From an uncultured Alphaproteobacteria bacterium (lineage in GTDB: Bacteria > Pseudomonadota > Alphaproteobacteria > Methylaequorales > Methylaequoraceae), in contig CACEXK010000005.1 in the NCBI GenBank assembly GCA_902563505.1, positions 6,636 to 70,635 on the forward strand: a DNA stretch of 64,000 nt, in the 5' to 3' direction. The notes below the pieces were generated by a model. It made no database searches and was not told the origin of the DNA. It was given only the letters and a program-made list of their open reading frames with translations. Every line of letters begins with the position of its first letter. Positions within the stretch are counted from its first letter, which is position 1. A program made the position numbers and the translations under genes. This document shows, piece by piece, positions 1,840-26,316 of the stretch.

Positions 1840-1855
1840 TGGCATTATTTTTGCT
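1840..1855 (+). promoter_or_regulatory. sigma54 (-24/-12) promoter of the slt gene
   Basis: TGGCATTATTTTTGCT; GG and GC separated by exactly 10 nt; 11 nt lie between the motif and the ATG. Confidence 0.8.
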
Positions 1856-1866
1856 CATAACTATTT

Positions 1867-2490
1867 ATGAGATTTCAAAAAATAATATTATTTTTTATTT
1901 TTTTAATCATTTTTGATTATTCCCACTCATACCAATTAACCAACTGTAGTAGTTTAACAGAAAAATATGGTAGGCAATTTAATTTACCTAACAAACTTCT
2001 AACCTCTATCTCATTGGTAGAGTCTGGAAAAAAAGTTGGAGATAAATTTGTCTCATGGCCATGGACTCTTAATGTTGGTGGCAATTCAAAGTTTTTTAAT
2101 AATAAAGAGGAGACATTAGTTTTTTTAAGAAAAAATTATTCAAAAAATAAAAATATAGATGTAGGTTGTATGCAAATAAGTCTAAAATATCACGCCAAAG
2201 AATTTGACAATCTTGAAGATATTTTAGATCCTGAGAATAATGTCGAATACGGTGCAAAATTTTTAAAATCTCTTTATAATAGGCATAAATCATGGAATGA
2301 AGCAATATCAAGATACCATTCATCAATTCCAAAGAATAAAATAAAATATCTCAAAAAAGTCAGGGTTTTTTGGTCTGACTTGAGACAAAGAAAAAAATAT
2401 GTCGATGTAAAAATTATTAGTGAAAAACAAAAAAAAATTGACTTTTTTCGAGAAGAATTTAGCAGGAAAAAATCATCAAATGAAATATGA
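1867..2490 (+). CDS. Lytic transglycosylase (SLT domain), probably flagellum-associated
   Basis: Signal peptide, catalytic SLVESG, PWTLN, IDVGCMQISLKYH, AISRYHS motifs; preceded by a sigma54 promoter. Confidence 0.85.
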   Translation: MRFQKIILFFIFLIIFDYSHSYQLTNCSSLTEKYGRQFNLPNKLLTSISLVESGKKVGDKFVSWPWTLNVGGNSKFFNNKEETLVFLRKNYSKNKNIDVGCMQISLKYHAKEFDNLEDILDPENNVEYGAKFLKSLYNRHKSWNEAISRYHSSIPKNKIKYLKKVRVFWSDLRQRKKYVDVKIISEKQKKIDFFREEFSRKKSSNEI

Positions 2491-2492
2491 AG

Positions 2493-2508
2493 TGGCAAGA
2501 AATTTGCA
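2493..2508 (+). promoter_or_regulatory. sigma54 (-24/-12) promoter of a small ORF
   Basis: TGGCAAGAAATTTGCA, correct 10-nt GG-GC spacing. Confidence 0.8.
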
Positions 2509-2536
2509 ACAATATTAACATAACTAAGGAGTTAAA

Positions 2537-2710
2537 ATGAATTTAAATAAAGAAATTACTAATGAAGATTCTAATAATGTTTCTGGTCACTACACTTACA
2601 TAGAAATTTCTCATTACGATGACGATAAATTACTTAAAACTGAAACATATCCTTTAAGTCATTTTTTAGAAGGGTTTGAAAAAGAATTCAAGAGAGTAAG
2701 ATACAATTAG
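2537..2710 (+). CDS. 57-aa hypothetical microprotein (not in the ORF track)
   Basis: MNLNKEITNEDSNNVSGHYTYIEISHYDDDKLLKTETYPLSHFLEGFEKEFKRVRYN*; AAGGAG Shine-Dalgarno at 2526-2531; sigma54 promoter upstream. Confidence 0.7.
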   Translation: MNLNKEITNEDSNNVSGHYTYIEISHYDDDKLLKTETYPLSHFLEGFEKEFKRVRYN

Positions 2711-2807
2711 AGAATTTGAGAACTCTTCAAACACTCAAAAGTCGATAATTCATTTTAAATTGTTACTGGTAAATCGCTATTTAAGTTTTGCAAATAATTA
2801 AATATTC

Positions 2808-4262
2808 TTAAACATTCAAACTCTGAATTTTCATCATCCTTCTTCTTATTGAGGAAGAGGGGATGTTAAGTAACTCTCTATATTTTGCTACTGTTCTTCT
2901 AGCTAAATTTATTCCCTCTGACTGGAGTTTAGTTACAAGAATTTCATCACTAAAGGGACAATTTATTGGTTCATTAGTGATTAATCTTTTCAGAGATTCT
3001 CTTACTGAGGCTGCTGAATGACTCTCTCCTTTAATAGTTCCACTAATTGATGCGCTGAAGAATAACTTCATTTCAAAAATCCCCCTAGGAGTCAGCATTA
3101 ATTTGTCAGTAGTAACCCGACTGACAGTACTCTCGTGCATGTCTATTTTTTTTGCAACATCTTTCAGGATCATTGGTTTAAGATATTTTTTTCCTTTTTC
3201 AAAAAATAGTTTTTGTTGATTTACAATTTCTGCACTGATTTTGAGTGTGGTTAAATTTCTTTGTTGTATTGCTTTCATCAACCATTTGGCTGAATTAAGG
3301 TTTTCTGTAATAAATTTTTTATCAGAATCAGAACAATTTAATTTCTCAATTTCTTTAACATATTCTTCATTTACAGTAACTTTTGGTAATGTGCTATCGT
3401 TTAATTCAACTTCCCAATTACCATTGTTTTTTGAAACTATAATGTCTGGGTTAAAGATATTGGTATTTTCATCAGAGTACTTGGTACCAGGTTTTGGGTT
3501 AAGTAATCTTATCAATCTAATATTTTCGCGAAGTTGATCCTCTTTTAAATTAGTTTTTTTCTGAAGTTCTTTAAGATTTCCGTTTCCAAGAAGCTCTAAA
3601 TTTTCTATGATTAATTTTCGCTCATCTGTTAATTTTTCTTCATTCAATAATTGAATCATGAGGCATTCCTTTAAATTTCTAGCAAAAACTCCATTTGGAT
3701 CAAATTTTTGCATTCTCAAAAGAACTTCTTCAATTTTAGTTTTTTCATAACCACTGAATGAAGAGATTTCATCTAAATCGTTGGTGATCCATCCATTAGG
3801 GTCAATATAATCAATAAGTATTTCTGCAATATTTTTTTCTTTTGTATCAGAGAATTCTAAATCAGCTTGACTTCTTAGGATAGATTTAAGGGATAACTTT
3901 TCACTCAGTGTTTGTTCGACTACAGACCCCGGGTCAATTGAATCATTATTTGAAGACTTGTTGTATGTATTATAAGTTGGATCTAAATCCCATCTATTTT
4001 CATAATCATCATTTTTTGGTTCATCTTTAAGAGATTCACCTGTTTCAAACGAATCATTAAGATCATTAGTATTTTCATCAAACTCCTCAGAATTTTCCTC
4101 ACTACTCTGATTTTCAAGAAAGGGATTTTCCTCAAGTTCTTTATTTACAAGATCAGTTAATTCTAAATTATTGAGTTGGAGAAGTTTTATCGCTTGCTGA
4201 AGTTGTGGGGTCATCACAAGTGACTGGCTTTGCTTTAATTTTAAATTCTGAGTAATTTGCAT
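2808..4262 (-). CDS. rpoN: RNA polymerase sigma-54 factor
   Basis: N-terminal QSQSLVMTPQLQQAIKLLQL, MHESTVSRV HTH, RpoN box ARRTVAKYRE. Confidence 0.98.
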   Translation of the reverse strand: MQITQNLKLKQSQSLVMTPQLQQAIKLLQLNNLELTDLVNKELEENPFLENQSSEENSEEFDENTNDLNDSFETGESLKDEPKNDDYENRWDLDPTYNTYNKSSNNDSIDPGSVVEQTLSEKLSLKSILRSQADLEFSDTKEKNIAEILIDYIDPNGWITNDLDEISSFSGYEKTKIEEVLLRMQKFDPNGVFARNLKECLMIQLLNEEKLTDERKLIIENLELLGNGNLKELQKKTNLKEDQLRENIRLIRLLNPKPGTKYSDENTNIFNPDIIVSKNNGNWEVELNDSTLPKVTVNEEYVKEIEKLNCSDSDKKFITENLNSAKWLMKAIQQRNLTTLKISAEIVNQQKLFFEKGKKYLKPMILKDVAKKIDMHESTVSRVTTDKLMLTPRGIFEMKLFFSASISGTIKGESHSAASVRESLKRLITNEPINCPFSDEILVTKLQSEGINLARRTVAKYRELLNIPSSSIRRRMMKIQSLNV

Positions 4263-4443: not shown

Positions 4444-4986
4444 ATGTTAAAAATAATTCCATTGATAATTATTCCTTTATTTTTTTTTATTATTTTTCTT
4501 GGTGTTGAAAACCTGACACAAATTTCTGATGCAAAAAAAGAAAATATAAGAAGTGAATTAGAGAAATTAGATCAAAAAGATGATTTTTTAGAAAAAACCG
4601 CTGAAAATATCCAAGTAACCAATAAAGTAAGTCCAGATGAGAATAAAGATGAAGGAATAATCGTCAAGGAAACTAAAAATAACAAAGACTTAAAAAAAGA
4701 TCAAGAGGCTAAAAAGTTAAAAAATCCTCCTAAGGCAATTAAAAAACCTATAAAAATTAAGATGCAATTTGGGGCATTCAAAAAAAAAGATTATGCAAAT
4801 TCTTCAAAACAATCGATCGAAAAAAAAATAAAACAAAAATTCCCTGATTTTTCAATTATTGTAAATTTTGATAATAAAAAAAATCTTTACAAATTAATTC
4901 ATTTTTCTGAGGATTTAAGCATTGCTAAAGAAGTGTGTGAATTTAGTAAAAAGAAAAAAATAGGTTGTCTAATAGTCAAAAAATGA
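4444..4986 (+). CDS. Membrane-anchored SPOR-domain-like protein
   Basis: N-terminal TM helix, charged linker, C-terminal MQFGAF...LYKL...AKEVC...GCLIVK pattern. Confidence 0.6.
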   Translation: MLKIIPLIIIPLFFFIIFLGVENLTQISDAKKENIRSELEKLDQKDDFLEKTAENIQVTNKVSPDENKDEGIIVKETKNNKDLKKDQEAKKLKNPPKAIKKPIKIKMQFGAFKKKDYANSSKQSIEKKIKQKFPDFSIIVNFDNKKNLYKLIHFSEDLSIAKEVCEFSKKKKIGCLIVKK

Positions 4987-5183
4987 AAAATTGCAGAATA
5001 TGTATTATAATTAGATTTTTTTTGGCTAGTGTTTTGTTATTAATAATAATTGGTTTGTCAATGACAGATAATTTACATTATTTATCTTATGTAACATCCT
5101 GGAATGCTGCAATTTTAGTTTTGGTTCTTGGTGTTATAATTTTTCTGGTGAGATTTTTCGAATACTTAAAGACAAAAGATTAA
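4983..5183 (+). CDS. Small two-helix membrane protein
   Basis: ATG at 4983 overlaps the upstream TGA (ATGA); two hydrophobic stretches; CxxC near the N-terminus. Confidence 0.6.
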   Translation: MKNCRICIIIRFFLASVLLLIIIGLSMTDNLHYLSYVTSWNAAILVLVLGVIIFLVRFFEYLKTKD

Positions 5184-5653
5184 CGATCTCTCAGGAATCT
5201 TACAAATAATTTTTTTTCTGGGACAAATCTCCCGTAAGAGTGACCAGTGAAAAAATTAACAGACCAAAAAAATTTGGGTGACCACCAATTTCTCTGTGAA
5301 GTCCAAAATGGCTCAGCTGGAGTATCTGGAAAAAACTCTAAATTAATTTTTACTTCACTACATTTTTTGCAAACTAAACTTTCTAACTCTTTTCTTTTAG
5401 GAAGTCTCCATTTTCCTTCCAATTGCTCATTTATAATTCTATTTGCTTCTTTAATCTCATTTAGATCGAGTTTTACTGGTTGACCGATACATTTTTCTTG
5501 TTTATCACTCCATTGTTGACCAGCAGAACATTTAAGCCATTCAACTTTATTCCTTAAATCTATCACATAATATCCCCTATCAATAAAATCAGCAGAAATT
5601 GCTGATTTTATGTAAAAGGATATAAAAATTACTATAAAAACTAAAAATTTCAT
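5180..5653 (-). CDS. DUF1566 (Lcl C-terminal) domain exported protein
   Basis: Signal peptide, WLKCSAGQQW, WRLPKRKELESL, FPDTPAEPFWTS, WSVNFFTG motifs. Confidence 0.8.
   Translation of the reverse strand: MKFLVFIVIFISFYIKSAISADFIDRGYYVIDLRNKVEWLKCSAGQQWSDKQEKCIGQPVKLDLNEIKEANRIINEQLEGKWRLPKRKELESLVCKKCSEVKINLEFFPDTPAEPFWTSQRNWWSPKFFWSVNFFTGHSYGRFVPEKKLFVRFLRDR
5583..5611. repeat. 12-bp perfect inverted repeat with a 5-nt loop
   Basis: ATAAAATCAGCA-GAAAT-TGCTGATTTTAT. Confidence 0.7.
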
Positions 5654-5709: not shown

Positions 5710-5725
5710 TGGTATTAAAGTTGCA
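5710..5725 (+). promoter_or_regulatory. sigma54 (-24/-12) promoter of motAB
   Basis: TGGTATTAAAGTTGCA, correct spacing, 56 nt before the motA ATG. Confidence 0.8.
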
Positions 5726-5781: not shown

Positions 5782-6549
5782 ATGGATTTAGCTTCTTTAA
5801 TTGGTTTTTTAGGTACAATAGGGATGATTGCTGGAGCAATGATTTCAGCAGGTGGATTAGGGATGTATATTGATGTTCCTTCTATATTAATTGTTTTTGG
5901 AGGTTCCTTTTTTGCAGTAATGTATACAGCTCCATTACCTACTTATTTAGGCGCGTGGGGCGCATTTGGTAAAGCTTTTAAACCACCAGTTAAAAAAATG
6001 GATGAATTAATAACTAGAATTGTTGAGCTCGCCGGTATTGCTAGAAAAGATGGTATGATGGCACTTGAGGGACAAGAAACCCCAGACCCTTTCTTTGATA
6101 ATGGTCTTCAGATGCTTGTCGATGGAGCTGATGAAGCCAAACTAACTGTTCAATTAAAAAAAGAACTAGCAGCTATGCAAGTTCGTCATAAATCTATGAT
6201 AGGAGTTGCACAATCTTGGGTTGACATAGCACCTGCAATGGGAATGATTGGAACTCTCGTTGGTTTGGTAGCAATGTTAGGAAATATGGCTGACCCAAAA
6301 GCAATTGGTCCTGCAATGGCTGTTGCTCTATTGACTACACTCTACGGAGCAATGATCGCAAACACTATCTTTACACCTATAGTAATTAAACTCAAGGGTT
6401 ATGACGCTTACGAAACAACTTACAGAGAAATGATTATTACTGGATTGCAATTTATTTCTAGAGGTGAAAGCCCAAGAAATATCCAAGATCAGCTCATAGC
6501 TAACCTTCCACCAAAAGAAAAACAAGCATTGATTGAATCTGAAGCTTAA
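5782..6549 (+). CDS. motA: Flagellar stator A subunit, short PomA-like type
   Basis: MDLASLIG start; ARKDGMMALE; APAMGMIGTLVGLVAML; IGPAMAVALLTTLYGA; 255 aa. Confidence 0.97.
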   Translation: MDLASLIGFLGTIGMIAGAMISAGGLGMYIDVPSILIVFGGSFFAVMYTAPLPTYLGAWGAFGKAFKPPVKKMDELITRIVELAGIARKDGMMALEGQETPDPFFDNGLQMLVDGADEAKLTVQLKKELAAMQVRHKSMIGVAQSWVDIAPAMGMIGTLVGLVAMLGNMADPKAIGPAMAVALLTTLYGAMIANTIFTPIVIKLKGYDAYETTYREMIITGLQFISRGESPRNIQDQLIANLPPKEKQALIESEA

Positions 6550-6558: not shown

Positions 6559-7737
6559 ATGGCTGAAGAAAAAAAAGAAAAAAAAGAAGAGGCAGTTGCT
6601 GCCGAAGAAGAAGAACACGAGTGTGAGGAGTGTCCTCCAAAGGGAGCGCCTGCATGGATGGCAACATTTGCTGATATGGCCACCCTTTTAATGGCTTTCT
6701 TCGTTTTGATTCTTTCTTTTGCTGAATTTAATGTCCCAAAATTTAAACAAATTAGTGGTAGTATGAAAAATGCCTTTGGTATTCAAAGAGTTATACCAAC
6801 AGTTGAACAACCCAAAGGCACAACAATGCTAACACTGAATTTTAGTCCCAATCCAACTCCATCTGTAACAGATAATAATCAACAGCAAACAACTGAAACG
6901 GATCAAAAAGAAGTAGAACTCAAAACAAAAGATAATGATGCTACTAAGGACGACGGGGAAAATGAGGATGCTAAAGAATTAGCTCAAAACATTAAAGATG
7001 CTGTTTCACAAGGTGATTCAGATGTACAAGTTGAAACTGTTGGAGATAAAGTTGTTGTAAACTTTGACCCTCAAGAAACAGATGAAAAAGAAATGCAGGA
7101 GGCAGTCCAAGCCATTGAATCAATTAAAGCAGCCTCAGGAAAATCAGATACGGAAGTTCTGTTTGGGGGTGTAGAAAAACAATTAGCGCAATTATCAACC
7201 GCATCCAACAAGCAAGGTAAAGGCGAAGCTGATTCTAATGAAGGTAATGATATTGGGTCATCTCCAGATACCTCAAAGGATGAAGAAAGAAAAGCAAAAA
7301 TAGCCGAGGACAAGTTTAAAGTAGCTTTAAAAGAAGAAATGGGTGAAGGATTAATTGATATTGAGAGAAACGAAGATAAAGTAATAATTACTGTTGGCTC
7401 AGGAGGAGCATTTAAATCAGGTTCAGCCGATTTGACTACAAAGGCAAAAAAGATTATGGCAAAAATTGCAGAGGTTAATGAAAAAGGTAGAAGTGAAATT
7501 TTAGTATCTGGTCATACTGATAATAAACCATTAACATTTGGTTCGATTTATAGAGATAATTGGGATCTTGCTGCTGCAAGGTCGTCATCAGTGGTACAGG
7601 AACTGTCCGGAACAGGAAAATTAAAACCAGATAGAATGAAAGCAATTAGCTATGGAGAAACTCAACCAGTTGCAGACAATAAATCTTCTGAAGGAAGAGA
7701 AAAAAATAGAAGAATTGAAATTGAAATTAATTATTAA
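6559..7737 (+). CDS. motB: Flagellar stator B subunit, PomB-like, with OmpA-like PG-binding domain
   Basis: ECPPKGAPAWMATFADMATLLMAFFVLILSF TM with the essential Asp; GHTDN, NWDLAAARS, NRRIEI. Confidence 0.96.
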   Translation: MAEEKKEKKEEAVAAEEEEHECEECPPKGAPAWMATFADMATLLMAFFVLILSFAEFNVPKFKQISGSMKNAFGIQRVIPTVEQPKGTTMLTLNFSPNPTPSVTDNNQQQTTETDQKEVELKTKDNDATKDDGENEDAKELAQNIKDAVSQGDSDVQVETVGDKVVVNFDPQETDEKEMQEAVQAIESIKAASGKSDTEVLFGGVEKQLAQLSTASNKQGKGEADSNEGNDIGSSPDTSKDEERKAKIAEDKFKVALKEEMGEGLIDIERNEDKVIITVGSGGAFKSGSADLTTKAKKIMAKIAEVNEKGRSEILVSGHTDNKPLTFGSIYRDNWDLAAARSSSVVQELSGTGKLKPDRMKAISYGETQPVADNKSSEGREKNRRIEIEINY

Positions 7738-7743: not shown

Positions 7744-8586
7744 ATGATTATTCAAAACAGCCCATTTTATAAGCCAAACCATTCTGTCAAGATAGTAGAT
7801 GAGGTAACTAAAAACATACCATTGGAAAATAAAAAAGAAACACAAGAGCTTAATGAAGAAGGGTTTTCTTTTTGGAAGTGGTTCAAAGGACTTGTTAACC
7901 CACTTCAAAATTTACCTTTAATTAGTGGAATATATTCCAGTGTGAATGCCGAGGATAAAAACTCAGATAGAGATTTAGTGCAAAATAGTCTTGGCGGTTT
8001 TTTGTATGGTGGACCAATTGGAGCTATTGCAGGTTTTGGCAACTGGGTTTTTAATAAGATTTTTGACAAGACTCCGACTGAATTGGCTTTGGATGCCTCT
8101 GGTATAAGTGATATTTGGAAAGATAATGATGAAAAAAAAGAGAATGTTATTGCCAAATCAGAGCAACCAGTAATTAGAGGAAATGAAAAAAGACTTTATT
8201 TACAAATGACCAGTAGTAATGATTTCTTAAAGAATTCAAAAAAAGATAAATTAAATTTAGAAAATAATTCGAACGAAAAATTAGCAAATCTTGATAATTC
8301 TATGGATTTAAAAAATGAAATAAAAAAAGATTTTATTTTGTCAAAAGAAAAAAAGATTGATCCAATAATTGTTTCAAAAAAGTTAGTTGAACCTGATTTA
8401 AAAAATAAATTTGTAAAATCCTCTAATGAGGAAGCGTTTAGAGAGATTAATTTTGATTATCCTGCTTGGAAACCAGAAAATTTGGAGATCTTAGGTAATA
8501 AAAGAGATCTAAAAAACTCAAAACTTAAGTATATGGATTTAGAAAAAAATAATTCCAAAGAATCATTTTATAATATAGATGCCTAA
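7744..8586 (+). CDS. Conserved hypothetical protein downstream of motB
   Basis: 280-aa ORF 6 nt after motB; core VNPLQNLPLISGIY...LGGFLYGGPIGAIAG; charged tail. Confidence 0.7.
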   Translation: MIIQNSPFYKPNHSVKIVDEVTKNIPLENKKETQELNEEGFSFWKWFKGLVNPLQNLPLISGIYSSVNAEDKNSDRDLVQNSLGGFLYGGPIGAIAGFGNWVFNKIFDKTPTELALDASGISDIWKDNDEKKENVIAKSEQPVIRGNEKRLYLQMTSSNDFLKNSKKDKLNLENNSNEKLANLDNSMDLKNEIKKDFILSKEKKIDPIIVSKKLVEPDLKNKFVKSSNEEAFREINFDYPAWKPENLEILGNKRDLKNSKLKYMDLEKNNSKESFYNIDA

Positions 8587-9186
8587 CTAGACAATTGGAT
8601 CCAGTTCTTCTGATTTATATTTTTCAAAAAATTCTGATCCTAGAATATTCTTAACTTTCTCCATGGTCATTTCTGAAATTTGTCCACCATAATTTTCATA
8701 ATATTCCTCGCACTTTCTTGAAGCAGCACTGGCGACACCCTGAGTTATAAACTCATTTTCAACAGCTGTTCTGGCTCTTGTTGTGGCTTCAGATTTTGCT
8801 TTAGTTAATCTTCCCATCGCTGAATTTTTTTTTCTATTGAGATCATCCACAACTTCCATTAGTTGTTTATATGTTGGATCCGGAACATTTAGATTAATAA
8901 ATTGTCCGTCAACATCATAATCAAAGTTTATTTCATCAATTTGCTCTGTAAGAATTTCGATATGGTCAGTGTTAAATACTAACAATTGAAGTTTGTGTGG
9001 GTCATCCGTTTTTTTTAAATCTGCGATGTCCACAAGCCTTCTTGGCTTACCTTGGATATTGATTCTGATGTTTTTGATTATAGTTAGGTTTGCATCAGTA
9101 GATTTAACATCTTTAAGAACTTCAGCATAGTCTTCTACAGCTGCTTTCATTAAGTTTTCAGCTTGGTCAGAATATTTTTCAGCCAT
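8587..9186 (-). CDS. Divergent ribosome recycling factor (RRF)-like paralog lacking RRF signature residues
   Basis: Aligns by eye over nearly its full length to recalled E. coli RRF with about two small indels; RTGRA, PPLTEERR and RNVRR are replaced by KSTDA, PDPTYKQL and TKAKS. Confidence 0.75.
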   Translation of the reverse strand: MAEKYSDQAENLMKAAVEDYAEVLKDVKSTDANLTIIKNIRINIQGKPRRLVDIADLKKTDDPHKLQLLVFNTDHIEILTEQIDEINFDYDVDGQFINLNVPDPTYKQLMEVVDDLNRKKNSAMGRLTKAKSEATTRARTAVENEFITQGVASAASRKCEEYYENYGGQISEMTMEKVKNILGSEFFEKYKSEELDPIV

Positions 9187-9219
9187 TTAAATTACCTTCT
9201 AAATATTTTTTATTTTAAT

Positions 9220-10005: not shown

Positions 10006-10010
10006 TGGAC

Positions 10011-14998: not shown

Positions 14999-15008
14999 TT
15001 TCTACTCC

Positions 15009-15986: not shown

Positions 15987-16003
15987 TTTTCAATCCCATA
16001 TTT

Positions 16004-16642: not shown

Positions 16643-16670
16643 CTTTACTCCTTTTAATTATTCTAATTGT

Positions 16671-18069: not shown

Positions 18070-18085
18070 TGCAATAATAGTGCCA
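18070..18085 (-). promoter_or_regulatory. sigma54 (-24/-12) promoter of fliKLMN
   Basis: Minus strand TGGCACTATTATTGCA, full consensus. Confidence 0.9.
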
Positions 18086-18094: not shown

Positions 18095-18502
18095 TTATTG
18101 ATAATTTTTTAGTTTAAAGTTTATTGATTCTCTCTGTTCTTTAATTTTTTCTGAAATTACAAGTTCTTTATTGATTTTTTCATTTATTTTTTCTTGTTGT
18201 TTATTTACTTTATTGATTTCACCCAAATAACTATCGATTTCCTTTGATAAATGCGCGGCTCTATTTTTGGAAATAGAGATTTTTTCCTGTAAGTTTTTTC
18301 TGAAAGAAGAAATTTGTTTCAGAGAAGAACTATTAAAAGTTTCTCCTATTGAAAGACTTGAATCATCAAGCATTTCTTTTAACTCGATATTAATTCTTTT
18401 TATTTTATTTTTTTCTCTGTTTAATGTCCCTAAACTTGAAACTAACTTATTTTTTTTTATTTTTTTTAATTTAGATAGGATTTCATATTTACTTTTTTTC
18501 AT
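18095..18502 (-). CDS. fliJ: Divergent FliJ-like coiled-coil export chaperone
   Basis: 135-aa helical protein directly after fliI; called mainly on synteny. Confidence 0.6.
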   Translation of the reverse strand: MKKSKYEILSKLKKIKKNKLVSSLGTLNREKNKIKRINIELKEMLDDSSLSIGETFNSSSLKQISSFRKNLQEKISISKNRAAHLSKEIDSYLGEINKVNKQQEKINEKINKELVISEKIKEQRESINFKLKNYQ

Positions 18503-18504
18503 TT

Positions 18505-19824
18505 TTAATTAATTCCCTGCAAATTTTGGATACTTTTATCAAAATTAGATTTTTCTGTTAAATCTTGCTTAATCAACCCGCAAATTTTAGGCCAAATTTC
18601 AATTGCTTTATCTATTTCTTCATTTTGTCCTTGTGAATAACCTCCCATTAAGACTAAATCTTTATTTTCCTGATATATTGAAAACATTCTTTTTATGTAT
18701 TCAGCCTTATTTTTGTGTTCACTAGAAATTACAGAATTCATAACTCGACTTAAAGATTGATTAAGATCAATAGCTGGAAAAATTCCTAATTGTGCAAATT
18801 CTCTGGATAAAACAATATGACCATCTAAAATAGCTCTTGCAGTATCAACAACTGGATCATTAGTATCATCAGAATCAGCTAAGATTGTATAAAAACTTGT
18901 TATGCTTCCTTCTCCTTTTCCTCCAGCACCAGTTCTTTCTATTAAATTTGGTATCATTGAAATAACTGATGGGGGATACCCTTTTGAAGTTGGCTGTTCT
19001 CCGAGCGCAAGTCCCACCTCTCTTTTTGCATGTGCTATTCTTGTAAGTGAATCCATTATCAATAGAACATTCTTTCCTTTTGATCTAAAATACTCTGCAA
19101 TTCCTGTTGCTCTTTCAGCTCCTTTTATTCTTAGTAATGGCGATTTGTCTGCCGGAACAGCGACTATGACTGTTCTTTTTTTTGTATCATCATTCAAGAT
19201 TTCTGAGACGAAATTTCCGAGCTCTCTTCCTCTTTCACCAATTAATGCTACAACAACAATTTCAGCTTCAGTAAATTTTGTCATCATGCCAAGAAGGATG
19301 GATTTACCAACACCTGATCCTGCAATTATTCCCAACCTTTGGCCTTGACCAACCGTAAAAAGTGAATTGATTGCTCTTATCCCAACATCCAAGGGTTTTT
19401 TTATTGTTTCCCTTTGCATTGGATTTACTGGTTTCCCATTTAGCGGCCAGATTTCATCTAATGCTAGGCTTTCTTTTTTTTCGTCAATAGGTTTTCCAAA
19501 TGCATCAATAACTCTTCCTAAAATATTTTCTCCAACATCGATATTATTCGAAGTATTTAATGCTTCAACTGAAGACCCAGAAACCAAATTGGCATTTTGG
19601 TCGTGAATTGCTATTAGATTTTTATTTTCTCTAAAACCAATTATTTCACCAGTTACATGGCTCCCGTCATTACATTCTATTTTACAAATTGTTCCTATAG
19701 GTGAAGGAAATGAGTTGCATTCAACAATTTTTCCATCAAATTTTGTTATTTTGCTTTTATAATTGGTATTTTTTTTTACAGAGATTTTATCTGAATTTAA
19801 TAGTATCTGGCTTGATATAATCAT
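18505..19824 (-). CDS. fliI: Flagellar export ATPase FliI
   Basis: AGSGVGKS, IGERGRE, DSLTR, DGHIVLSR, PAID. Confidence 0.97.
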   Translation of the reverse strand: MIISSQILLNSDKISVKKNTNYKSKITKFDGKIVECNSFPSPIGTICKIECNDGSHVTGEIIGFRENKNLIAIHDQNANLVSGSSVEALNTSNNIDVGENILGRVIDAFGKPIDEKKESLALDEIWPLNGKPVNPMQRETIKKPLDVGIRAINSLFTVGQGQRLGIIAGSGVGKSILLGMMTKFTEAEIVVVALIGERGRELGNFVSEILNDDTKKRTVIVAVPADKSPLLRIKGAERATGIAEYFRSKGKNVLLIMDSLTRIAHAKREVGLALGEQPTSKGYPPSVISMIPNLIERTGAGGKGEGSITSFYTILADSDDTNDPVVDTARAILDGHIVLSREFAQLGIFPAIDLNQSLSRVMNSVISSEHKNKAEYIKRMFSIYQENKDLVLMGGYSQGQNEEIDKAIEIWPKICGLIKQDLTEKSNFDKSIQNLQGIN

Positions 19825-19826
19825 TT

Positions 19827-20726
19827 TTAATTGTCAACTTTTGTTTCTTGGGTGGTTGCGTTATTCTTATTTTTTTTTAATTCACTTATTTTTTTTTCAA
19901 CATTATTTTCTTCAGAGAATTTTAATTTATTTGATAAAATTTCTCCTATCTCAATTGCTCCTGATTTAATCTTGAGATCTCCTCTATTTAAATCTTTGTC
20001 AGGAAATAACTCAAAATCAATTATTATCTTATTTTTTAGAATGAATTCACTGATTGCTTTATGGTCTGATTCATTAAGGAAGATTCTTATTTTCTTTAGA
20101 GAATCTTCAACTGAATTTGTAAAATTTTTAATTTTTTCAAAATATTTTTCAGTTTTTGTATCAATTTCATAACCTAAAATTTCTCTAGAAATTTTTAAAA
20201 TAGATTTATTAACATTATTATTTAGCTTTTCGGAAAATTCTGGACTAATTGAAAAGATATTATCTAATGCATTCTTAAAGTTAACTGCTAAGGCTTTTTC
20301 TCCTTGTTGCAATTCTTCCTTTATTTTTTTTACACCTAGATGATAACCTTTATTATAGTAATCTTTTGCAAGATCATTGGCCATTTTTTTTGCTTCTACT
20401 TCTGTATATTTTTTCTCATCTACTTTTTTTTCTTCACTTTCTGTTTCCTTTACCCCTTCTTGATTTTTAACTATTTCTTCATCTTTTTGTTCAATAACCT
20501 CGGTATCTTTATTTTCTTCATCATGCTTAATAGATGAATCTGCTAGTTGTTTCAAACTTGTTTTTCTAAACAAGTTTGAAATATTATCAGTTATTTCAGA
20601 CTCTCTAGTAAAATCATTGCTAGTCTTATCTAATAAACTAAGTATTTCTTCTGTATTTAAAGCCTTTGATTTCTCAGGGCTAATACTGTCATCAGATTTA
20701 ACAGGGTTGTCTTTTAGCGGCATCAT
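19827..20726 (-). CDS. fliH: Flagellar assembly protein FliH
   Basis: YNKGYHLG repeat-like stretch, DKDLNRGDLKI; located between fliG and fliI. Confidence 0.8.
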   Translation of the reverse strand: MMPLKDNPVKSDDSISPEKSKALNTEEILSLLDKTSNDFTRESEITDNISNLFRKTSLKQLADSSIKHDEENKDTEVIEQKDEEIVKNQEGVKETESEEKKVDEKKYTEVEAKKMANDLAKDYYNKGYHLGVKKIKEELQQGEKALAVNFKNALDNIFSISPEFSEKLNNNVNKSILKISREILGYEIDTKTEKYFEKIKNFTNSVEDSLKKIRIFLNESDHKAISEFILKNKIIIDFELFPDKDLNRGDLKIKSGAIEIGEILSNKLKFSEENNVEKKISELKKNKNNATTQETKVDN

Positions 20727-21769
20727 ACAAAGTCATCTCCGCCTCTTCCAGCAAGAACAATTGTTCCTTCATCAGACATAGTCCTTGCTACATTAATTAC
20801 TGCTTTTTGCGCCTCTTGAACTTCTGTAAGTCTAATAGGACCTAAAACCTCCATTTCATCCTTAATATTTGCCGCAGCTCTTTGCGACATACAATTGAAA
20901 ATTTTCTCTTTCAAATCATCTTCTGTTCCTTTAAGAGCAATAATTAAGATCTCTTGATCTACATTTCTTAATAGTGTTTGCATACTCCTGTCATCCATAA
21001 GTATTAGTGTTTCAAATGTAAACATACTTTCTTGAATTTCTTTAGCTAGATGCCTATCTTTTTCTCCCAGAGCTTTAATTACTCTTTGCTCCATATTCTG
21101 CTTTGTAAAATTCATAATTGATGCTGCAGCTTTTATTCCACCTACAGAAGAAGCTCTTAATGATGTGTTTGTTTTGAATTTTAGTTGCATTACTCTTTCT
21201 AATTCTGCTAAAGCATCGGGTTGTACTGTTTCTAAAGTAGCAACTCTATGAATCAAATCCGCTTGAATATCTTCCGGTAAAAGTACTAAAACATCAGCAG
21301 CTACACCAGCCTCTAAATAAGAAATTATTAATGCCATTATTTGTGGATGTTCGTCTGAAATAAGTTCCGCAACTGATCTTGCATCCATCCAATCTAAAAT
21401 TTCAATGGGTTTGTCGCTCTCAGTAGGTGTGATTCTCCCTAAAACCGATTGAGCTTTATTTTCTCCAAGAGCTTTTGTCATTACATTTTTTATGTAATTC
21501 GATGAACCCATCCCTAGATCAGTTTGAGTTTTTATGATTGCCAAAAATTCATCAAGTACTTTGTTAACTGTATCTTGATCAAGCCCTTGAACATTGTACA
21601 TTTCTTTCCCAAGTTGTTGCACTTCTTTAGGACCAAGGTTCCTCAAAATTTCTGAAGCCTCTTCCTCTCCAAGTAACATCATCAAGATTGCACATTTTTG
21701 TGTACTATTTAATTTCTCAAAATTAGATAACTCTTCTTCATTATTTTCTTCTTTTTGTTTTTCAGCCAT
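20723..21769 (-). CDS. fliG: Flagellar motor switch protein FliG
   Basis: QKCAILMMLLGEE, EHPQ, MFTFE, MSQRAA. Confidence 0.98.
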   Translation of the reverse strand: MAEKQKEENNEEELSNFEKLNSTQKCAILMMLLGEEEASEILRNLGPKEVQQLGKEMYNVQGLDQDTVNKVLDEFLAIIKTQTDLGMGSSNYIKNVMTKALGENKAQSVLGRITPTESDKPIEILDWMDARSVAELISDEHPQIMALIISYLEAGVAADVLVLLPEDIQADLIHRVATLETVQPDALAELERVMQLKFKTNTSLRASSVGGIKAAASIMNFTKQNMEQRVIKALGEKDRHLAKEIQESMFTFETLILMDDRSMQTLLRNVDQEILIIALKGTEDDLKEKIFNCMSQRAAANIKDEMEVLGPIRLTEVQEAQKAVINVARTMSDEGTIVLAGRGGDDFV

Positions 21770-21791
21770 AAAATACCCCTACTAATTATTA

Positions 21792-23519
21792 CTATGCATC
21801 TTTTTTCATTAGTTGTCTAAAGACATTTGATACTTTTCCTGCCTCATCGCCAACAATCATTCTTATTACTGCAACTTTATCATCATAAGTATTTGCTGTA
21901 TCTAGCATTTCAGCTGAAATTGCAGTTTTCTTCGGTTTCAATTTAGCCTTTATATCCTCTAAAGATTCTCCTTCTTGAACTTCTACTTCTTCCTCTGGTT
22001 CAGCCTCAAGGTCCTCTTCAGACATAGCTCCGCTCGGAGCACCAGCAGCACCAGCAGATGGCACAAGAATTCTATTAAGTAGAGGCTTGAGTGCTCCAAA
22101 AGTTATAATTGCAAGAATAAGTACGGTAGAAAGTTGACCAATTAGATTTTGAAACCAAGATTCTTCATACCAATTAACACTAACTAAATCCATTTCCTCA
22201 ATAAAATCACCGCTAGTCACAACAATGCTGTCTCCTCTATCACCATTAAATCCTACAGCTTCTTTTACAAGTGAAGAAATCTTCTCACTATCTTCTGCAC
22301 TGAGCGGTTCGGTAATTGTTGTGCCCTCAGGTGTTTCTACGATTTTATTTTTAACTAATACAGCAGTTTTAACTTTTCTTATTTTACCAATTTGTCCTAC
22401 AACTGTACTAAGTTTTTTACTAACTTCGTAGTTTTTAACATTAGATGTTGACCTTTGTTTAAATTCTTGTTCAGTTTCTTCAGTTGGGGCATCTATTTGA
22501 AGATCTGCTGCTAACGGTGCCTGGTTAGCTACAGCACCCGGAATACCTCTAGCTGGTCTATCTGTTGATTCATCAGCACTGTTTTGCTCACTCCGTGTAG
22601 CTATACTTTCAGGATCAAATGTTTCCTCAGTAGTTTGGGTGTTTGTGAAATCCATCTCAACATTTACTTGTGCTGTAAGATTCCCTGCACCTACTATCGG
22701 GGAAACTAGCGATAATATTCTTTCTCGATACAAGGATTCAATTTTTATTCTGTGGTTTAATTGTTTTTCTGTTAACGCAATATTAGGATCATCCTCTGGT
22801 TTTGATAATAATGTACCATACTGATCTACAACCGTTACATTATCAGATGACATATTTGGAATTGATGAAGAGACTATGTGCACAATAGATCTTATTTGCT
22901 CTCTATTTAATATTCTCCCATCCGCTAATTTTACAAAAACTGATGCAGTTGGAGATGCAGCGTCTCGAACAAAAACTGATCTCTCTGGAATTGCGAGGTG
23001 AACTCTAGCTCCAGTGATATGAGCTATTTCATTAATTGATCTTGCCAATTCGATTTCCTGAGTTTGTTTCATTTTCATAAATTCAACAGACCTACTGGTT
23101 CCCATTGGTATTTTTTCAAGTAAATCGTACCCCTGGGGAACTGAGCTCGGAAGACCTTCAGCAGCTAATTTCATTTTAGCTTCATAATATTCTGGAGCAG
23201 GAACAAGTATTTCCCCAGTTGTTGAGTCAATAGAAACATCAATACCATTATTTCTTAATACTTCCATGACTCTTGATTTTTCATGTTCTGGTAATGAGGA
23301 AAAAAGAGTTGTTCTCGAGGGTTCTCTGAATGAAACAAAAAGTACTAAACCAATGAATATCACAAAAAGAGTAATCATCACAGGTATGGATCTTTGTACA
23401 GCAGGTTCATTAGAAAACTTTCTTAGTTTATCTAAAGTATTTCCAATATTAGCAATCAAATTAGTATTTGTATCTTGATTAGCAGTTGTAATTTCAGATG
23501 TTTGAGTTTGTTCAGCCAT
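21792..23519 (-). CDS. fliF: Flagellar MS-ring protein FliF
   Basis: ARVHLAIPERSVFVR, PTASVFV, AVGFNGDRGDSI; two TMs. Confidence 0.97.
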   Translation of the reverse strand: MAEQTQTSEITTANQDTNTNLIANIGNTLDKLRKFSNEPAVQRSIPVMITLFVIFIGLVLFVSFREPSRTTLFSSLPEHEKSRVMEVLRNNGIDVSIDSTTGEILVPAPEYYEAKMKLAAEGLPSSVPQGYDLLEKIPMGTSRSVEFMKMKQTQEIELARSINEIAHITGARVHLAIPERSVFVRDAASPTASVFVKLADGRILNREQIRSIVHIVSSSIPNMSSDNVTVVDQYGTLLSKPEDDPNIALTEKQLNHRIKIESLYRERILSLVSPIVGAGNLTAQVNVEMDFTNTQTTEETFDPESIATRSEQNSADESTDRPARGIPGAVANQAPLAADLQIDAPTEETEQEFKQRSTSNVKNYEVSKKLSTVVGQIGKIRKVKTAVLVKNKIVETPEGTTITEPLSAEDSEKISSLVKEAVGFNGDRGDSIVVTSGDFIEEMDLVSVNWYEESWFQNLIGQLSTVLILAIITFGALKPLLNRILVPSAGAAGAPSGAMSEEDLEAEPEEEVEVQEGESLEDIKAKLKPKKTAISAEMLDTANTYDDKVAVIRMIVGDEAGKVSNVFRQLMKKDA

Positions 23520-23532
23520 AATCTATCCTTTT

Positions 23533-23877
23533 TTAAACAGGCATATTCATAATATCTTTATATGCTGTTAGTACTTTGTTTCTAACATTCAATGTCATTT
23601 GAAAACCAAGTCCAGCAAGTTGCTGGTTAATCATTACTTTTGTTAGATCGTTTTCTAAACCAAGTTCATAGTTTTTTGTCAGTTCAGCACTTTTTACTTG
23701 GCTTTCTGAAACCTGATCAATTGCATTTTTAACACTTTCCAGAAAATTATCGCTTTTATTTTCTTCGATTTTAGGTGTTAACTTGGCAACATCTTCTTGA
23801 AGATTTTTAATTTGTGTTTGATTGTTGTTGGCTTCAACCAAGTTAGGTTTAAATACAGTTGTTAAGTTAGGTTTCAT
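23533..23877 (-). CDS. fliE: Flagellar hook-basal body protein FliE
   Basis: NVRNKVLTAYKDIMNMPV C-terminus. Confidence 0.95.
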   Translation of the reverse strand: MKPNLTTVFKPNLVEANNNQTQIKNLQEDVAKLTPKIEENKSDNFLESVKNAIDQVSESQVKSAELTKNYELGLENDLTKVMINQQLAGLGFQMTLNVRNKVLTAYKDIMNMPV

Positions 23878-23908
23878 TATTTTATATCCTTATTTTTTTA
23901 TATTAATA

Positions 23909-25063
23909 TTAAATCACTGCTTGCTTTACTTCCTCATTCTCACTCAAATTTGAATAAAAATCATTCTTAGAATTAATGTCGATCATTATATCTTTTTCAT
24001 CTATAATTTCTCCATCACATAAAACAATTGCTCTCTGTAAAACATTCTCAAGTTCTCTAACATTTCCTGGCCAATTATAGCCTTTCAATAATTCTCTGGC
24101 TTTGTTTGTTATAAATGGCAATTTAGTTATACCTGAATGTCTTTTGAGTAAAGCCACACTTATTGGAATAATATCATTAGGTCTTTCTGACAGATTACAG
24201 GTTTCTATTGGAAATACATTTAATCTGTAATAGAGATCTTCTCTAAATTTCTTATCTTTAACTTCTTCAATCATATTACGATTAGTTGTAGCAATAACCC
24301 TTACATCAACATCAATATCTCTTTGTCCTCCAATTGGTGTAACCTTCTTTTCTTGGAGAACCCTCAATAACTTTGCTTGAAGTGAAAGTGGCATTTCAGA
24401 AATTTCATCAAGAAGAAGAGTGCCTGTGTCTGCTGCCCTGAAGATACCCTTGTTTGCTGAAGAAGCACCTGTAAAAGCCCCTTTTTCGTGACCAAAAAGC
24501 ATCGCCTCTAGCATATTTTCTGGAATTGCTGCACAGTTGATAGCAACAAAGGGTTTTTCTGACCTTCCAGAATTCTGATGAATGAAATTTGAAATAACTT
24601 CTTTTCCTGTCCCGGTTGGTCCATAGATAAAAACCGTAACATCTGTTTGAGCTACTTTTTTTGCCATTTTTACCAAAGAATGTGTTTTTGTATCTGAAAA
24701 ACTGAAGTTTTCAGTAGTTAAGATCTGAAAAATTATTTCTTTAACTACTTCATCAATCCCATTAAACATGATTTCTAGGTATGCTCCACCTAGATCTTCA
24801 TTTATCGAAAATTTATTTTCTTTTGATTCATTAAGAACAATTATACTTGTAGAACCAATATTTCTAGAGACTTTAAGTAACTCTGACTTTCCTCCAATTT
24901 CATTATTGAATTTATTAGAGCAAATAAGAGTTGATTTATTTTTTTCTAAACTTTTAGTATCATTAGAATTAATTACGGAATTTTTTATATTTTTGTCATT
25001 TAAAAAGTCTGACAACTTTTCAAATTGTTCAAAACTATCTTTTAAAATTAATATTTCTTTCAT
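23909..25063 (-). CDS. fleT: FleT-like sigma54 activator (degenerate receiver-like N-terminus, AAA+, no HTH)
   Basis: GPTGTGKE, GAFTGA, LLLDEISEM, WPGNVRELEN; ends shortly after the AAA+ domain with no Fis-type HTH; first gene of the fliE operon. Confidence 0.75.
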   Translation of the reverse strand: MKEILILKDSFEQFEKLSDFLNDKNIKNSVINSNDTKSLEKNKSTLICSNKFNNEIGGKSELLKVSRNIGSTSIIVLNESKENKFSINEDLGGAYLEIMFNGIDEVVKEIIFQILTTENFSFSDTKTHSLVKMAKKVAQTDVTVFIYGPTGTGKEVISNFIHQNSGRSEKPFVAINCAAIPENMLEAMLFGHEKGAFTGASSANKGIFRAADTGTLLLDEISEMPLSLQAKLLRVLQEKKVTPIGGQRDIDVDVRVIATTNRNMIEEVKDKKFREDLYYRLNVFPIETCNLSERPNDIIPISVALLKRHSGITKLPFITNKARELLKGYNWPGNVRELENVLQRAIVLCDGEIIDEKDIMIDINSKNDFYSNLSENEEVKQAVI

Positions 25064-25095
25064 ATCTCGCCTTTAAACTGTTTTGATTTACTAAA

Positions 25096-25111
25096 AGCAA
25101 GAAGCTTACCA
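25096..25111 (-). promoter_or_regulatory. sigma54 (-24/-12) promoter of fleT-fliEFGHIJ
   Basis: Minus strand TGGTAAGCTTCTTGCT, correct spacing. Confidence 0.8.
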
Positions 25112-25205
25112 AATTGTTTTATTTTTTTTATTTTTTTTTAAAAATCATTAAAATCAATTACTTACGAAAGACATTTCAAATTTTTATTTTTTTAAATTTC
25201 CTTAT

Positions 25206-25221
25206 TGTCATTTTTCTGACA
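25206..25221. promoter_or_regulatory. Palindromic FleQ-box-like operator between fleT and fleQ
   Basis: TGTCATTTTTCTGACA (TGTCA-N6-TGACA). Confidence 0.65.
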
Positions 25222-25242
25222 TTATTTTTATTGTATTTATGT

Positions 25243-26316
25243 ATGACTGAGATAATTAAAGGAAGTTGCGATGCAACTAAGCAGTTAAGAAAACTAGTAG
25301 AGATGGTTTCCGTCTCTGGGTCAACTGTTTTACTAAGAGGTGAAACCGGTTGTGGAAAAGATGTTGTTGCTCGAGCTATTCATGATCAATCAAAAAGAAA
25401 AGGGGATTTAATTAATGTTAATTGTGCTGCAATACCATCAGAACTATTAGAATCTGAATTGTTTGGTCACGAAAAGGGAGCTTTTACAGGAGCCGACTCA
25501 AAAAGAGAAGGAAGATTTGAAGCCTCAAATAATGGTACTCTCTTTTTAGATGAAATTGGCGATATGCCTCTTTCTCTTCAAGCAAAATTATTGAGGGCTA
25601 TAGAAACAAGAAAAATCCAGAGGGTTGGTGGAAAAGGTGAAATAAATTTAGATCTAAGATTGATTTGTGCAACTCATCAGAATATAGAAAAAAAGATTGA
25701 AGAGGGATTATTTAGAGCTGACCTTTTTTATAGAATTAATGTTTTTCCAATTGAGATCCCTACACTGTCTGAGAGAAAAGATGATATCCCAGAATTAATT
25801 GAACATATTTTAAGTGAAATTGAAACAAGTGGCTCTAAAATTCCATTATTTGAAGATTCAGCAATTTCAGCATTAAAAGAATATATATGGCCGGGAAATG
25901 TAAGAGAACTTAGAAATGTAATTGAAAGGTCAACAATAATTTTTTCAAATAAAAAAATAAATGCAAAAAATATAAGAGAAAATTTACTTAAAATTAATCT
26001 TCCTGATTTTAAAGAAGAAAAGAAAATTATCTGGGATATGACATCAGAACTTGCAGATATAAATGAAGAAAAAGAAAATGATGATTCAAATGAAATATCA
26101 ATGCCTCATCCCAATCACTATAAAAAATGGTTTGAGTATCTTGACCAAATTGATTTGAGAAGACACTTGGGGGAGGTTGAATATATTCTTATTGAAGGTG
26201 CACTGAGAAAGTCAAGTGGATCAGTTACAGAAGCATCTAAAAGTCTAAAAATAAATAGAACTACTCTGATTGAAAAAATGAAAAAATACTCAATACCAAA
26301 AGTAGGGAATGACTAA
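25243..26316 (+). CDS. fleQ: Flagellar master regulator FleQ-like sigma54 activator without an N-terminal regulatory domain
   Basis: Likely start MTEIIKGSC at 25243; GETGCGKD, GAFTGA, WPGNVRELRN; C-terminal IDLRRHLGEVE...INRTTLIEKMKKY HTH typical of FleQ. Confidence 0.85.
   Translation: MTEIIKGSCDATKQLRKLVEMVSVSGSTVLLRGETGCGKDVVARAIHDQSKRKGDLINVNCAAIPSELLESELFGHEKGAFTGADSKREGRFEASNNGTLFLDEIGDMPLSLQAKLLRAIETRKIQRVGGKGEINLDLRLICATHQNIEKKIEEGLFRADLFYRINVFPIEIPTLSERKDDIPELIEHILSEIETSGSKIPLFEDSAISALKEYIWPGNVRELRNVIERSTIIFSNKKINAKNIRENLLKINLPDFKEEKKIIWDMTSELADINEEKENDDSNEISMPHPNHYKKWFEYLDQIDLRRHLGEVEYILIEGALRKSSGSVTEASKSLKINRTTLIEKMKKYSIPKVGND

Follow-up and report, generated by a model that had tools for sequence, protein, structure and literature searches.

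Is the FleQ/FleT-controlled flagellum of alphaproteobacteria a loan from gammaproteobacteria, or an old possession of the class? In the textbook view, Fla1 of Cereibacter (Rhodobacter) sphaeroides came in from gammaproteobacteria. The question is raised anew by a block of flagellar genes at 1.8-26.3 kb of the window, the whole 64-kb stretch of DNA analyzed here (positions 6636-70635 of contig C5), which belongs to a 1.27-Mb draft genome in 24 contigs. An earlier note on this DNA had described the block as a FleQ/FleT/RpoN-type island of gammaproteobacterial origin, long resident in an alphaproteobacterial backbone. At a probability of about 85%, the block covers regulation, export and motor, about half of a complete Fla1-type regulon, was present in the ancestor of the host order, has its closest relatives among alphaproteobacteria, and is likely run by a FleQ/FleT cascade.

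Fla1 is marked by the master activator FleQ, by FleT, which lacks a DNA-binding domain and is encoded by the first gene of fleT-fliEFGHIJ, by an rpoN2 gene in the locus, by FlgT and FlgP, and by a prominent hook-filament junction (PMC7277832, PMC11999139). In C. sphaeroides the locus spans RSP_0032-RSP_0083, and systems of this kind are called 'fla3-type' in Rhodobacterales (PMC7277832, PMC12363192). Judged from its sequence, the system described here bears all these marks and is of this type, as a member shared order-wide.

FleQ and FleT

The regulatory genes of the block, called as all others by Pfam and NCBIfam scans of the open reading frames (ORFs) of the window, are:

2808-4262, minus strand: rpoN, encoding sigma-54 (Pfam AID, CBD and DBD; TIGR02395, 428 bits)
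23909-25063, minus strand: fleT, a sigma-54 activator without helix-turn-helix (HTH) domain, first gene of the operon 18095-25111
25243-26316 (listed ORF 25114-26316), plus strand: fleQ, an activator with AAA+ and HTH_8 domains, divergent from fleT

FleT, 384 amino acids (aa) long, matches Sigma54_activat and its lid only, neither HTH_8 nor Response_reg being detected by Pfam. FleT proteins without HTH were also found by Pfam in other members of the order, in SAR116, in a Planktomarina metagenome-assembled genome (MAG) and in genome G396; the architecture of the Octadecabacter protein is taken from alignment only. The fleT gene and fliE share a strand, fleT being 31 nt upstream, and no gene is interposed between fleT and fleQ. 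The listed fleQ ORF is too long. In relatives, the first 43 codons (25114-25242) hold stop codons and the protein starts at the equivalent of Met44, and the start was therefore set at Met44 (25243). The corrected FleQ measures about 357 aa and begins 6 residues before the AAA+ domain, the region between the divergent genes widening from 50 bp to about 179 bp. Sigma54_activat, lid and HTH_8 make up the protein, an architecture shared by SAR116. The N-terminal FleQ domain (PF06490) gave no match in this FleQ, and scores 101 bits in FleQ of Pseudomonas, FleR of the same genus being made up by receiver (REC), AAA+ and HTH domains. Domains and gene order bear out the predicted FleQ/FleT/RpoN-type system with divergent fleQ.

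The AlphaFold model of FleT (22 sequences) has a mean pLDDT of 81, and of about 85 over the N-terminal 115 residues. The best Foldseek matches to the model are structures formed by receiver and AAA+ domains (NtrC1 1NY5, LuxO, NtrC4), the alignments extending over almost the whole protein. Identity to the solved FlrC of V. cholerae is 53-57% in the AAA+ domain, and in MAFFT alignments with FleR and FlrC the phospho-acceptor aspartate is substituted in all FleT sequences. FleT reads as a descendant of FlrC/FleR which lost both the HTH and the kinase partner; that its N-terminus is a degenerate receiver-like domain is hinted at by the alignment and the fold matches, and unproven.

Sigma-54 promoter-like sites

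The window was scanned with the pattern TGGCAC-N5-TTGCW. Sites ahead of genes of the block are:

1840-1855, plus strand: promoter-like site before the SLT gene, TGGCATTATTTTTGCT, 1 mismatch, 11 nt upstream of the ORF start
2493-2710, plus strand: putative short ORF with a promoter-like site at 2493-2508, 1 mismatch
5710-5725, plus strand: promoter-like site before motA, 2 mismatches
14485-14500, minus strand: promoter-like site before fliO, 2 mismatches
18070-18085, minus strand: promoter-like site before fliK, perfect TGGCAC-N5-TTGCA, 0 mismatches
25096-25111, minus strand: promoter-like site before fleT, TGGTAAGCTTCTTGCT, weak match, 2 mismatches

All six are intergenic and correctly oriented, and internal promoters before fliK and fliO had already been noted. 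Sites with at most one mismatch number three in the 64 kb, all within the flagellar part; promoter-like sites total 32 in the window against 16.7 expected by chance, a roughly two-fold excess. Outside the window, sites with at most one mismatch stand directly before flgG, flgL, the gene of a 521-aa flagellin, a flgF-like gene, flgB and flhA. Over contigs C5, C9 and C3, such sites precede at least nine flagellar operons.

In tblastn searches of the genome rpoN gave a single match, FleQ and FleT were the only sigma-54 activators, and no NtrC-type or other activator was detected. Sigma-54 seems, from the genome sequence, to serve nothing beyond the flagellum. A search for canonical sigma-28 promoters (TAAA-N15-GCCGATAA) returned nothing before flagellar genes. 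By eye, a GTCGTT(A/T)A motif was spotted 20-40 nt before two small flagellin genes and fliD (minus strand of contig C3, ahead of 14554, 19111 and 22469), a possible -10 element for FliA.

Genes of the flagellar system

The other genes of the block are listed below.

1867-2490, plus strand: SLT-domain lytic transglycosylase (PF01464), position kept in 5 relatives
4444-4986, plus strand: conserved ORF between rpoN and motA, 29-52% identical and at the same position in 5 relatives
5180-5653, minus strand: Lcl_C-domain protein (PF07603)
5782-6549, plus strand: motA (Pfam MotA_ExbB)
6559-7737, plus strand: motB (Pfam MotB_plug and OmpA; best NCBIfam model MotB family PRK08944)
7744-8586, plus strand: ORF after motB, 46-69% identity in relatives
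8587-11145, minus strand: small ORFs forming the tail of the fliO-flhB operon, including 10011-10736, 9220-10005 and 8587-9186
8587-9186, minus strand: RRF-like gene (Pfam match to RRF)
11135-12289, minus strand: flhB (Pfam)
12290-14455, minus strand: fliR, fliQ, fliP and fliO (Pfam), the export-gate operon with flhB, 11135-14500 including the promoter-like site
14579-18041, minus strand: fliN, fliM, fliL and fliK (Pfam), the operon reaching to 18085 with its promoter-like site
18095-23877, minus strand: fliJ, fliI, fliH, fliG, fliF and fliE (Pfam; FliJ match weak)

The scans agree with the list of flagellar genes first proposed for 1.8-26.3 kb. The stators had been called PomA/PomB-like. PomA is indeed the best NCBIfam model for MotA, yet the score of 270 bits is below the cut-off of 341 and does not tell the coupling ion; the Fla1 motor of C. 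sphaeroides is driven by protons (PMC7277832). The SLT enzyme is a candidate flagellar SltF-like enzyme, a role suggested by C. sphaeroides.

Some accessory genes reach beyond the order. The Lcl_C gene adjoins motA also in SAR116 (51% identity) and on pOA238_118 of Octadecabacter arcticus 238 (31%), a plasmid which emerged as the one outlier, at 67% identity, in a tblastn search of plasmids with FliG. The ORFs 10011-10736 and 9220-10005 follow flhB in SAR116 (37% and 25% identity) and on the same plasmid (35% and 25%). Others are confined: within the order, conservation of the RRF-like gene and of the ORF that follows motB amounts to 46-85% identity, and neither was found in the SAR116 contig or on the Octadecabacter plasmid. 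The latter ORF matched no Pfam or NCBIfam family, nor did ORF 4444-4986.

The remainder of the system resides on two further contigs, in line with the expectation that flhA, flg, fliA and flagellin genes lie outside the window:

Contig C9: flgF-like gene, fliA, flhG, a P-loop gene at the flhF position, flhA, the gene of an LPP20/FlgP lipoprotein, the genes of an FlgT_N protein and a LysM protein, flgA, flgM, the gene of a DUF2802 protein, flgB, flgC, flgD, flgE (1305 aa), and a second rod gene of the flgF/G family
Contig C3: two fliS-like genes, four flagellin-family genes, the gene of a tetratricopeptide repeat (TPR) protein, fliD, flgL, flgK (1794 aa), flgJ (102 aa), flgI, flgH and flgG

FlgT_N (E 1e-9) and LPP20 (E 3.5e-8) domains are found in adjacent genes after flhA; FlgJ is reduced to the rod-binding domain, and FlhG is of the ParA/MinD type. 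FliI, FliG, FliM and FliN gave one copy each in tblastn searches of the genome. As there is one rpoN gene and one set of fliI, fliG, fliM and fliN, with all other parts on C9 and C3, the gene inventory describes a single, complete flagellar system.

Two features of contig C3 were noted in passing. A gene for a ClC-type chloride channel (C3:11536-13236) stands beside the fliS, flagellin and fliD genes, and a full-length homologue (31% identity), annotated 'chloride channel protein', is found beside fliD on the flagellar plasmid of O. arcticus. The TPR protein, 540 aa long and with repeats confirmed by Pfam, and a 254-aa ORF are encoded among the flagellin and fliS genes (C3:14660-17449), and are suspected, from a reading of the sequence, to be flagellin glycosylation enzymes (FlmG-like).

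Host genome and conservation of the block

The host is, by its gene sequences, a deep-branching member of Alphaproteobacteria, the class that had been supposed. AspS is 74% identical to that of a genome of the same family, 53-58% to Sphingomonas (58%), SAR116 (56%), the Planktomarina MAG and G396, and 40% to a Colwelliaceae genome. The 16S gene (contig C17) is 98% identical to that of another genus of the same order, 83-86% to other alphaproteobacteria, the SAR116 genome being at 84%, and 79% to a gammaproteobacterium. Both markers point to Alphaproteobacteria only and leave the nearest order unsettled. The genome is 87% complete and has a GC content of about 29%, that of the window varying from about 0.27 to 0.37. 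The right flank of the block encodes rhodanese, MarC, BamB, Der, PurF, MlaE, DnaB, FabF, MltG, Gmk, SurA, LptD/G/F, PepA, HolC, HdaA and AspS, the left flank an M23 peptidase. HdaA and a DnaB of the PRK09165 type, the best NCBIfam model for the protein of the right flank, are presumably typical of alphaproteobacteria. The supposed fabD is not such: 46074-47015 encodes MltG (TIGR00247, 200 bits), and FabF is at 44816-46069.

A single family with 14 genera makes up the order, which is represented by 42 species genomes. Close FleT homologues of this lineage carry the label 'Rickettsiales bacterium' at NCBI. An alphaproteobacterial 'Clade X', of unresolved position and formerly assigned to 'Rickettsiales', has the most highly expressed xoxF5 of the ocean (PMC11996626).

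FliI orthologues 70-81% identical to the query were found in 20 of 24 relatives, the four genomes devoid of FliI being 56-87% complete. FliG is present at 85-96% identity in 33 of the 42 genomes, in all nine of high quality (9/9), and in 12 of the 14 genera. The order MarC-rhodanese-fleQ<>fleT-fliE...flhB-tail is identical in 11 relatives; where the stretch retrieved from them reaches on, the ORF after motB and then motB follow in the same order. On the left side, motB-motA-LclC-ORF-rpoN-SLT-M23 peptidase is identical in 5 relatives from five genera. Since the block and both its flanks are syntenic across the order, the flagellar block, by comparison of these genomes, predates the radiation of the order, with its gene arrangement and the housekeeping genes on either side already in place, and has been kept under strong constraint since the ancestor of the order. 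It is not an island carried by one lineage.

A recent genomic island was considered and rejected. No tRNA gene was found in the window; GC content is like that of the genome, and flanks are identical order-wide. Neither integrases nor insertion sequences occur among the scanned ORFs, an exhaustive search of the window for them not having been made. A long-resident copy with unmarked edges, as first described, fits these data.

In a draft of 24 contigs the flagellar block of another organism might have been joined to an alphaproteobacterial backbone by assembly or binning. The same junctions recur, however, in 5-11 relatives assembled independently, and both are crossed by contigs from unrelated marine metagenomes, which match 613-2492 and 214-2069 at the left junction (M23/SLT, 1831/1867), and 25203-26505 and 26280-26529 at the right one (fleQ/rhodanese, 26316/26313). 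The GC content of the block is that of the genome, and flagellar genes reside on three contigs, each time amid housekeeping genes. The chance of such an artefact is practically negligible.

Just left of the window, three bactofilin-like ORFs (109, 126 and 138 aa), spotted by eye, are arranged in tandem at C5:5190-6329, followed by the M23 peptidase (459 aa, window 452-1831). The SAR116 contig (L156) has bactofilin and M23 homologues in the same order beside rpoN-motAB, and the set may be a cell-shape module tied to the flagellar block.

Origin of the system

FliI of this genome is 43-51% identical to FliI of beta- and gammaproteobacteria, and 36-40% to FliI of ordinary alphaproteobacteria. In a survey of 400 genomes of the phylum, most of those of the same class had no close FliI; Sphingomonadaceae (named from the tree) and G396 stood at 45-54%, other classes at 43-49%. 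The highest values outside the order were those of a SAR116 single-cell genome (56%) and the Planktomarina MAG (53%), with Sphingomonadaceae at about 50%.

Trees were made from FliI, and from nine proteins under LG+G4 and under LG+C20 with posterior mean site frequencies (PMSF), in a quick and a careful version; support is given as bootstrap/SH-aLRT of the careful LG+C20 PMSF tree. The order groups with SAR116 (87/99), both with G396 and two clusters of Rhodobacterales, those of the Planktomarina MAG and the Octadecabacter plasmid (100/100), and this clade with Sphingomonadaceae (100/99). Sampled gamma- and betaproteobacteria form a clade of their own (95/96), to which the alphaproteobacterial clade is, at moderate support, sister, not nested inside. 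The closest relatives of the system are thus, in these trees, all alphaproteobacterial, from sea and soil, and no gammaproteobacterial cluster is closer. RpoN was dropped as a phylogenetic marker, its best matches outside the order being 39-45% identical in genomes of the same and of other classes alike. In a Limnohabitans MAG (L103; betaproteobacterial), FliF, FliG and FliI attach to the alphaproteobacterial Fla1-type clade (100/100) and not to other betaproteobacteria, with L034 (G371) listed beside it; the Limnohabitans genes may, from this placement, represent a transfer out of alphaproteobacteria.

Fla1 of C. sphaeroides is held to derive from an ancient gammaproteobacterium (PMC7277832), and by extension the ancestor of the present lineage could have taken the whole system directly from a gammaproteobacterium, its composition being ameliorated later. 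FleQ, an FlrC-like activator before fliE, FlhG, the FliA/FlgM pair, FlgT, FlgP and the PomA model as best match of the stator are all in line with such a source, as is a FliI nearer to beta- and gammaproteobacteria than to ordinary alphaproteobacteria. Yet every nearest relative is alphaproteobacterial, and the alphaproteobacterial clusters have derived features in common, FleT without HTH, a divergent FleQ without N-terminal domain, the lack of a FleS kinase and a common set of accessory ORFs, which are absent from the gammaproteobacteria examined. The alphaproteobacterial clade falls outside the sampled beta- and gammaproteobacterial one, and fla3 clusters were described as recruited 'from other alphaproteobacterial orders' (PMC12363192). 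Direct import from gammaproteobacteria is accordingly held to be improbable. Of the gammaproteobacterial acquisition proposed in the earlier note, what stands is that the system is long-resident and not of the CtrA type; the nine-protein tree places the cluster with alphaproteobacterial clusters, under a weak rooting. The rooting is weak because clusters of ordinary alphaproteobacteria are arranged too differently, 20-kb stretches around their FliI yielding FliI, FliG and FliN only, from two genomes, and the outgroup is partial.

A source within the class is a much more serious matter. The ancestor of the order may have received the cluster by horizontal operon transfer from a marine alphaproteobacterium, a SAR116-like donor, or the transfer may have gone in the reverse direction. 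Clusters of the fla3 type, 8% of those of Rhodobacterales, were spread by horizontal operon transfer, and one is on a plasmid (PMC12363192). The flagellar proteins pick SAR116 as sister (FliG 73%, FliN 74%, MotA 69% identity), a genome which AspS and 16S do not single out, and the type is patchy in the class, being found in 13 same-class genomes (2 families) among the 400 of the phylum. On the other hand, FliI diverges in step with AspS (74% and 74% within the family, 56% and 56% to SAR116), as vertical descent predicts, a pattern which fits vertical inheritance over a long time, or a transfer of great age. Moreover, a larger ancestral region is suggested by the bactofilins and the M23 peptidase which both lineages carry beside rpoN. 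Because the place of the host among alphaproteobacteria is unsettled, no conflict between trees can be demonstrated, and the odds of transfer within the class are put at somewhat below even.

Chemotaxis and function

CheW domains, which mark both CheW and CheA, are missing in this genome and in 41 genomes sampled from the family, and the signalling domain of methyl-accepting chemotaxis proteins (MCP) is missing from each of the 42 genomes that represent the order, of which nine are 90% complete or better; both families were detected in control genomes. Two receiver-domain proteins are encoded in the genome, neither in the flagellar block. As both occupy frames of about 232 aa, a CheY-like single-domain protein is lacking. 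That che genes are not in the window is correct; they are not found elsewhere in the genome either, nor anywhere in the order. The N-terminus of FliM reads LSSEEVNALM, which we take to resemble the CheY-binding motif. Contigs of marine metatranscriptomes, four in number and taken from different studies, hold fragments of the flagellin genes at 98-100% identity. Such matches suggest that flagellin is expressed at sea, DNA carry-over being the alternative.

By analogy with C. sphaeroides, FleQ, with its AAA+ and HTH domains, and sigma-54 would first turn on fleT-fliEFGHIJ. FleT would then join FleQ and redirect it to the sigma-54 promoters of the fliK and fliO operons, motAB and the SLT gene, and to those of flhA and of the operons starting with flgB, flgG and flgL. 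The same step would also bring on FliA and FlgM, and once the hook is complete FliA would drive the late genes, those of the flagellins and fliD. With CheA, CheW, MCP and CheY-like proteins all missing, the motor is probably not switched by chemotaxis.

The same lack, order-wide, would fit an apparatus which does not serve swimming and is kept for another use, for instance to export proteins or to attach, as in some reduced genomes. The parts needed for rotation and propulsion have been kept nonetheless, MotAB, FliL and a FliG conserved at 85-96% identity among them, and so have the hook, the junction, several flagellins, FliD and FliS, and flagellin fragments turn up in metatranscriptomes; an apparatus that does not swim is very improbable.

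Some points weigh against the Fla1-type regulon of alphaproteobacterial kinship proposed here. The genome is 87% complete, and regulation, motility and lack of switching are all inferred. The joint node on the side of the root has a support of 89/61, so that the position as sister to, rather than nested in, the beta- and gammaproteobacterial clade is moderately supported; the tree is rooted on two partial, long-branch outgroups of ordinary alphaproteobacteria, beta- and gammaproteobacteria are sampled as the best 80 hits, and a deviant amino-acid composition of the sequences of the order was flagged in every tree. The link to C. sphaeroides runs through the Planktomarina MAG, the Octadecabacter plasmid and the literature, rather than RSP_0032-0083 itself. 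At the flhF position, between flhA and flhG (C9:19259-20452), a 397-aa P-loop protein gives weak generic P-loop matches, and none to the SRP54/FlhF family of Pfam. A comparison by hhalign of 11 FleT N-termini with 9 FleR/FlrC receivers was not significant (probability 0.6%).

With the Fla1-type regulon so read, a textbook case is shifted: a flagellum of this type is the sole one of a deep-branching marine alphaproteobacterial order, in which it is vertically stable, and the origin of Fla1 becomes testable with the genomes now at hand. A strongly conserved flagellum without CheA, CheW, MCP or CheY-like protein is a natural case for the value of non-chemotactic swimming, set in an oligotrophic, genome-streamlined plankton cell. 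One rpoN gene with FleQ and FleT makes a minimal sigma-54 system, in which to learn how an activator devoid of HTH retargets its partner. A wider picture is possible rather than likely: Fla1, or fla3, would be no gammaproteobacterial loan but an old alphaproteobacterial flagellum at home in marine orders with streamlined genomes, among them the present one and SAR116, borrowed later by Rhodobacterales including C. sphaeroides, and serving here a swimming free of chemotaxis, under a sigma-54 regulon with FleQ and FleT only, in an order that may be 'Clade X', the methanol oxidizers with highly expressed xoxF5.

Comparison with known systems

The polar flagellum of Vibrio and Pseudomonas shares with the present system the order fliE-F-G-H-I-J-K-L-M-N-O-P-Q-R-flhB, the succession of a sigma-54 and a sigma-28 tier, and FlhG, FlgT and FlgP. 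It differs in many respects, as here there is neither a sensor kinase nor a che cluster, FleT has no HTH and no recognizable receiver domain, FleQ is divergent and without the N-terminal domain named after it, identity between core proteins is low (25-49%), and the protein at the flhF position gave no match to the family. In gammaproteobacteria FleQ has the N-terminal domain, its gene is on the same strand, and fliE is preceded by a REC-AAA+-HTH regulator; in sphingomonads the activator at the fleT position retains the HTH. A gammaproteobacterial regulon of the FleQ-FleSR or FlrA-FlrBC kind was rejected for lack of PF06490 and of a pair formed by a kinase and a REC-AAA+-HTH regulator, and for the position in the weakly rooted trees.

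The common alphaproteobacterial flagellum (CtrA/FlbD of Caulobacter; 'fla1-type' of Rhodobacterales) is found in the same class, and also relies on sigma-54 and an activator, FlbD, for its middle genes. FliI is however only 36-40% and FliG about 31% identical, fliI is apart from fliF and fliG there, and the sequences form a long-branch outgroup in the trees. A flagellum of the CtrA/FlbD type was rejected on the same FliI identities, on the different neighbourhoods, and on the outgroup position.

The match is closest with Fla1 of C. sphaeroides and its kin. Shared features include a FleQ with HTH, a FleT without DNA-binding domain heading fleT-fliEFGHIJ, an rpoN gene inside the locus (here between SLT and motAB), FlgT and FlgP, a single-domain FlgJ accompanied by an SLT enzyme, FlgE and FlgK of great length (here 1305 and 1794 aa), and a late tier under FliA and FlgM. 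In contrast, the system is here the sole flagellum, no second set of the CtrA type being found in the genome; it is split over three loci rather than housed in one locus of about 57 kb, is accompanied by no chemotaxis genes, linked or unlinked, has motAB and rpoN next to the fli operons, and includes extras specific to the order, the RRF-like ORF and the ORF after motB. The three loci described here and the annotated cluster of pOA238_118 are collinear, and have in common even the ORFs after flhB, Lcl_C beside motA, an ORF after fliA and ClC beside fliD. The SAR116 contig has the same arrangement of divergent fleQ<>fleT-fliE...flhB-tail, and upstream motAB, LclC, rpoN, the M23 peptidase and bactofilins. 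Clusters of the fla3 type are scattered, whereas the system described here is vertically stable through the whole order.

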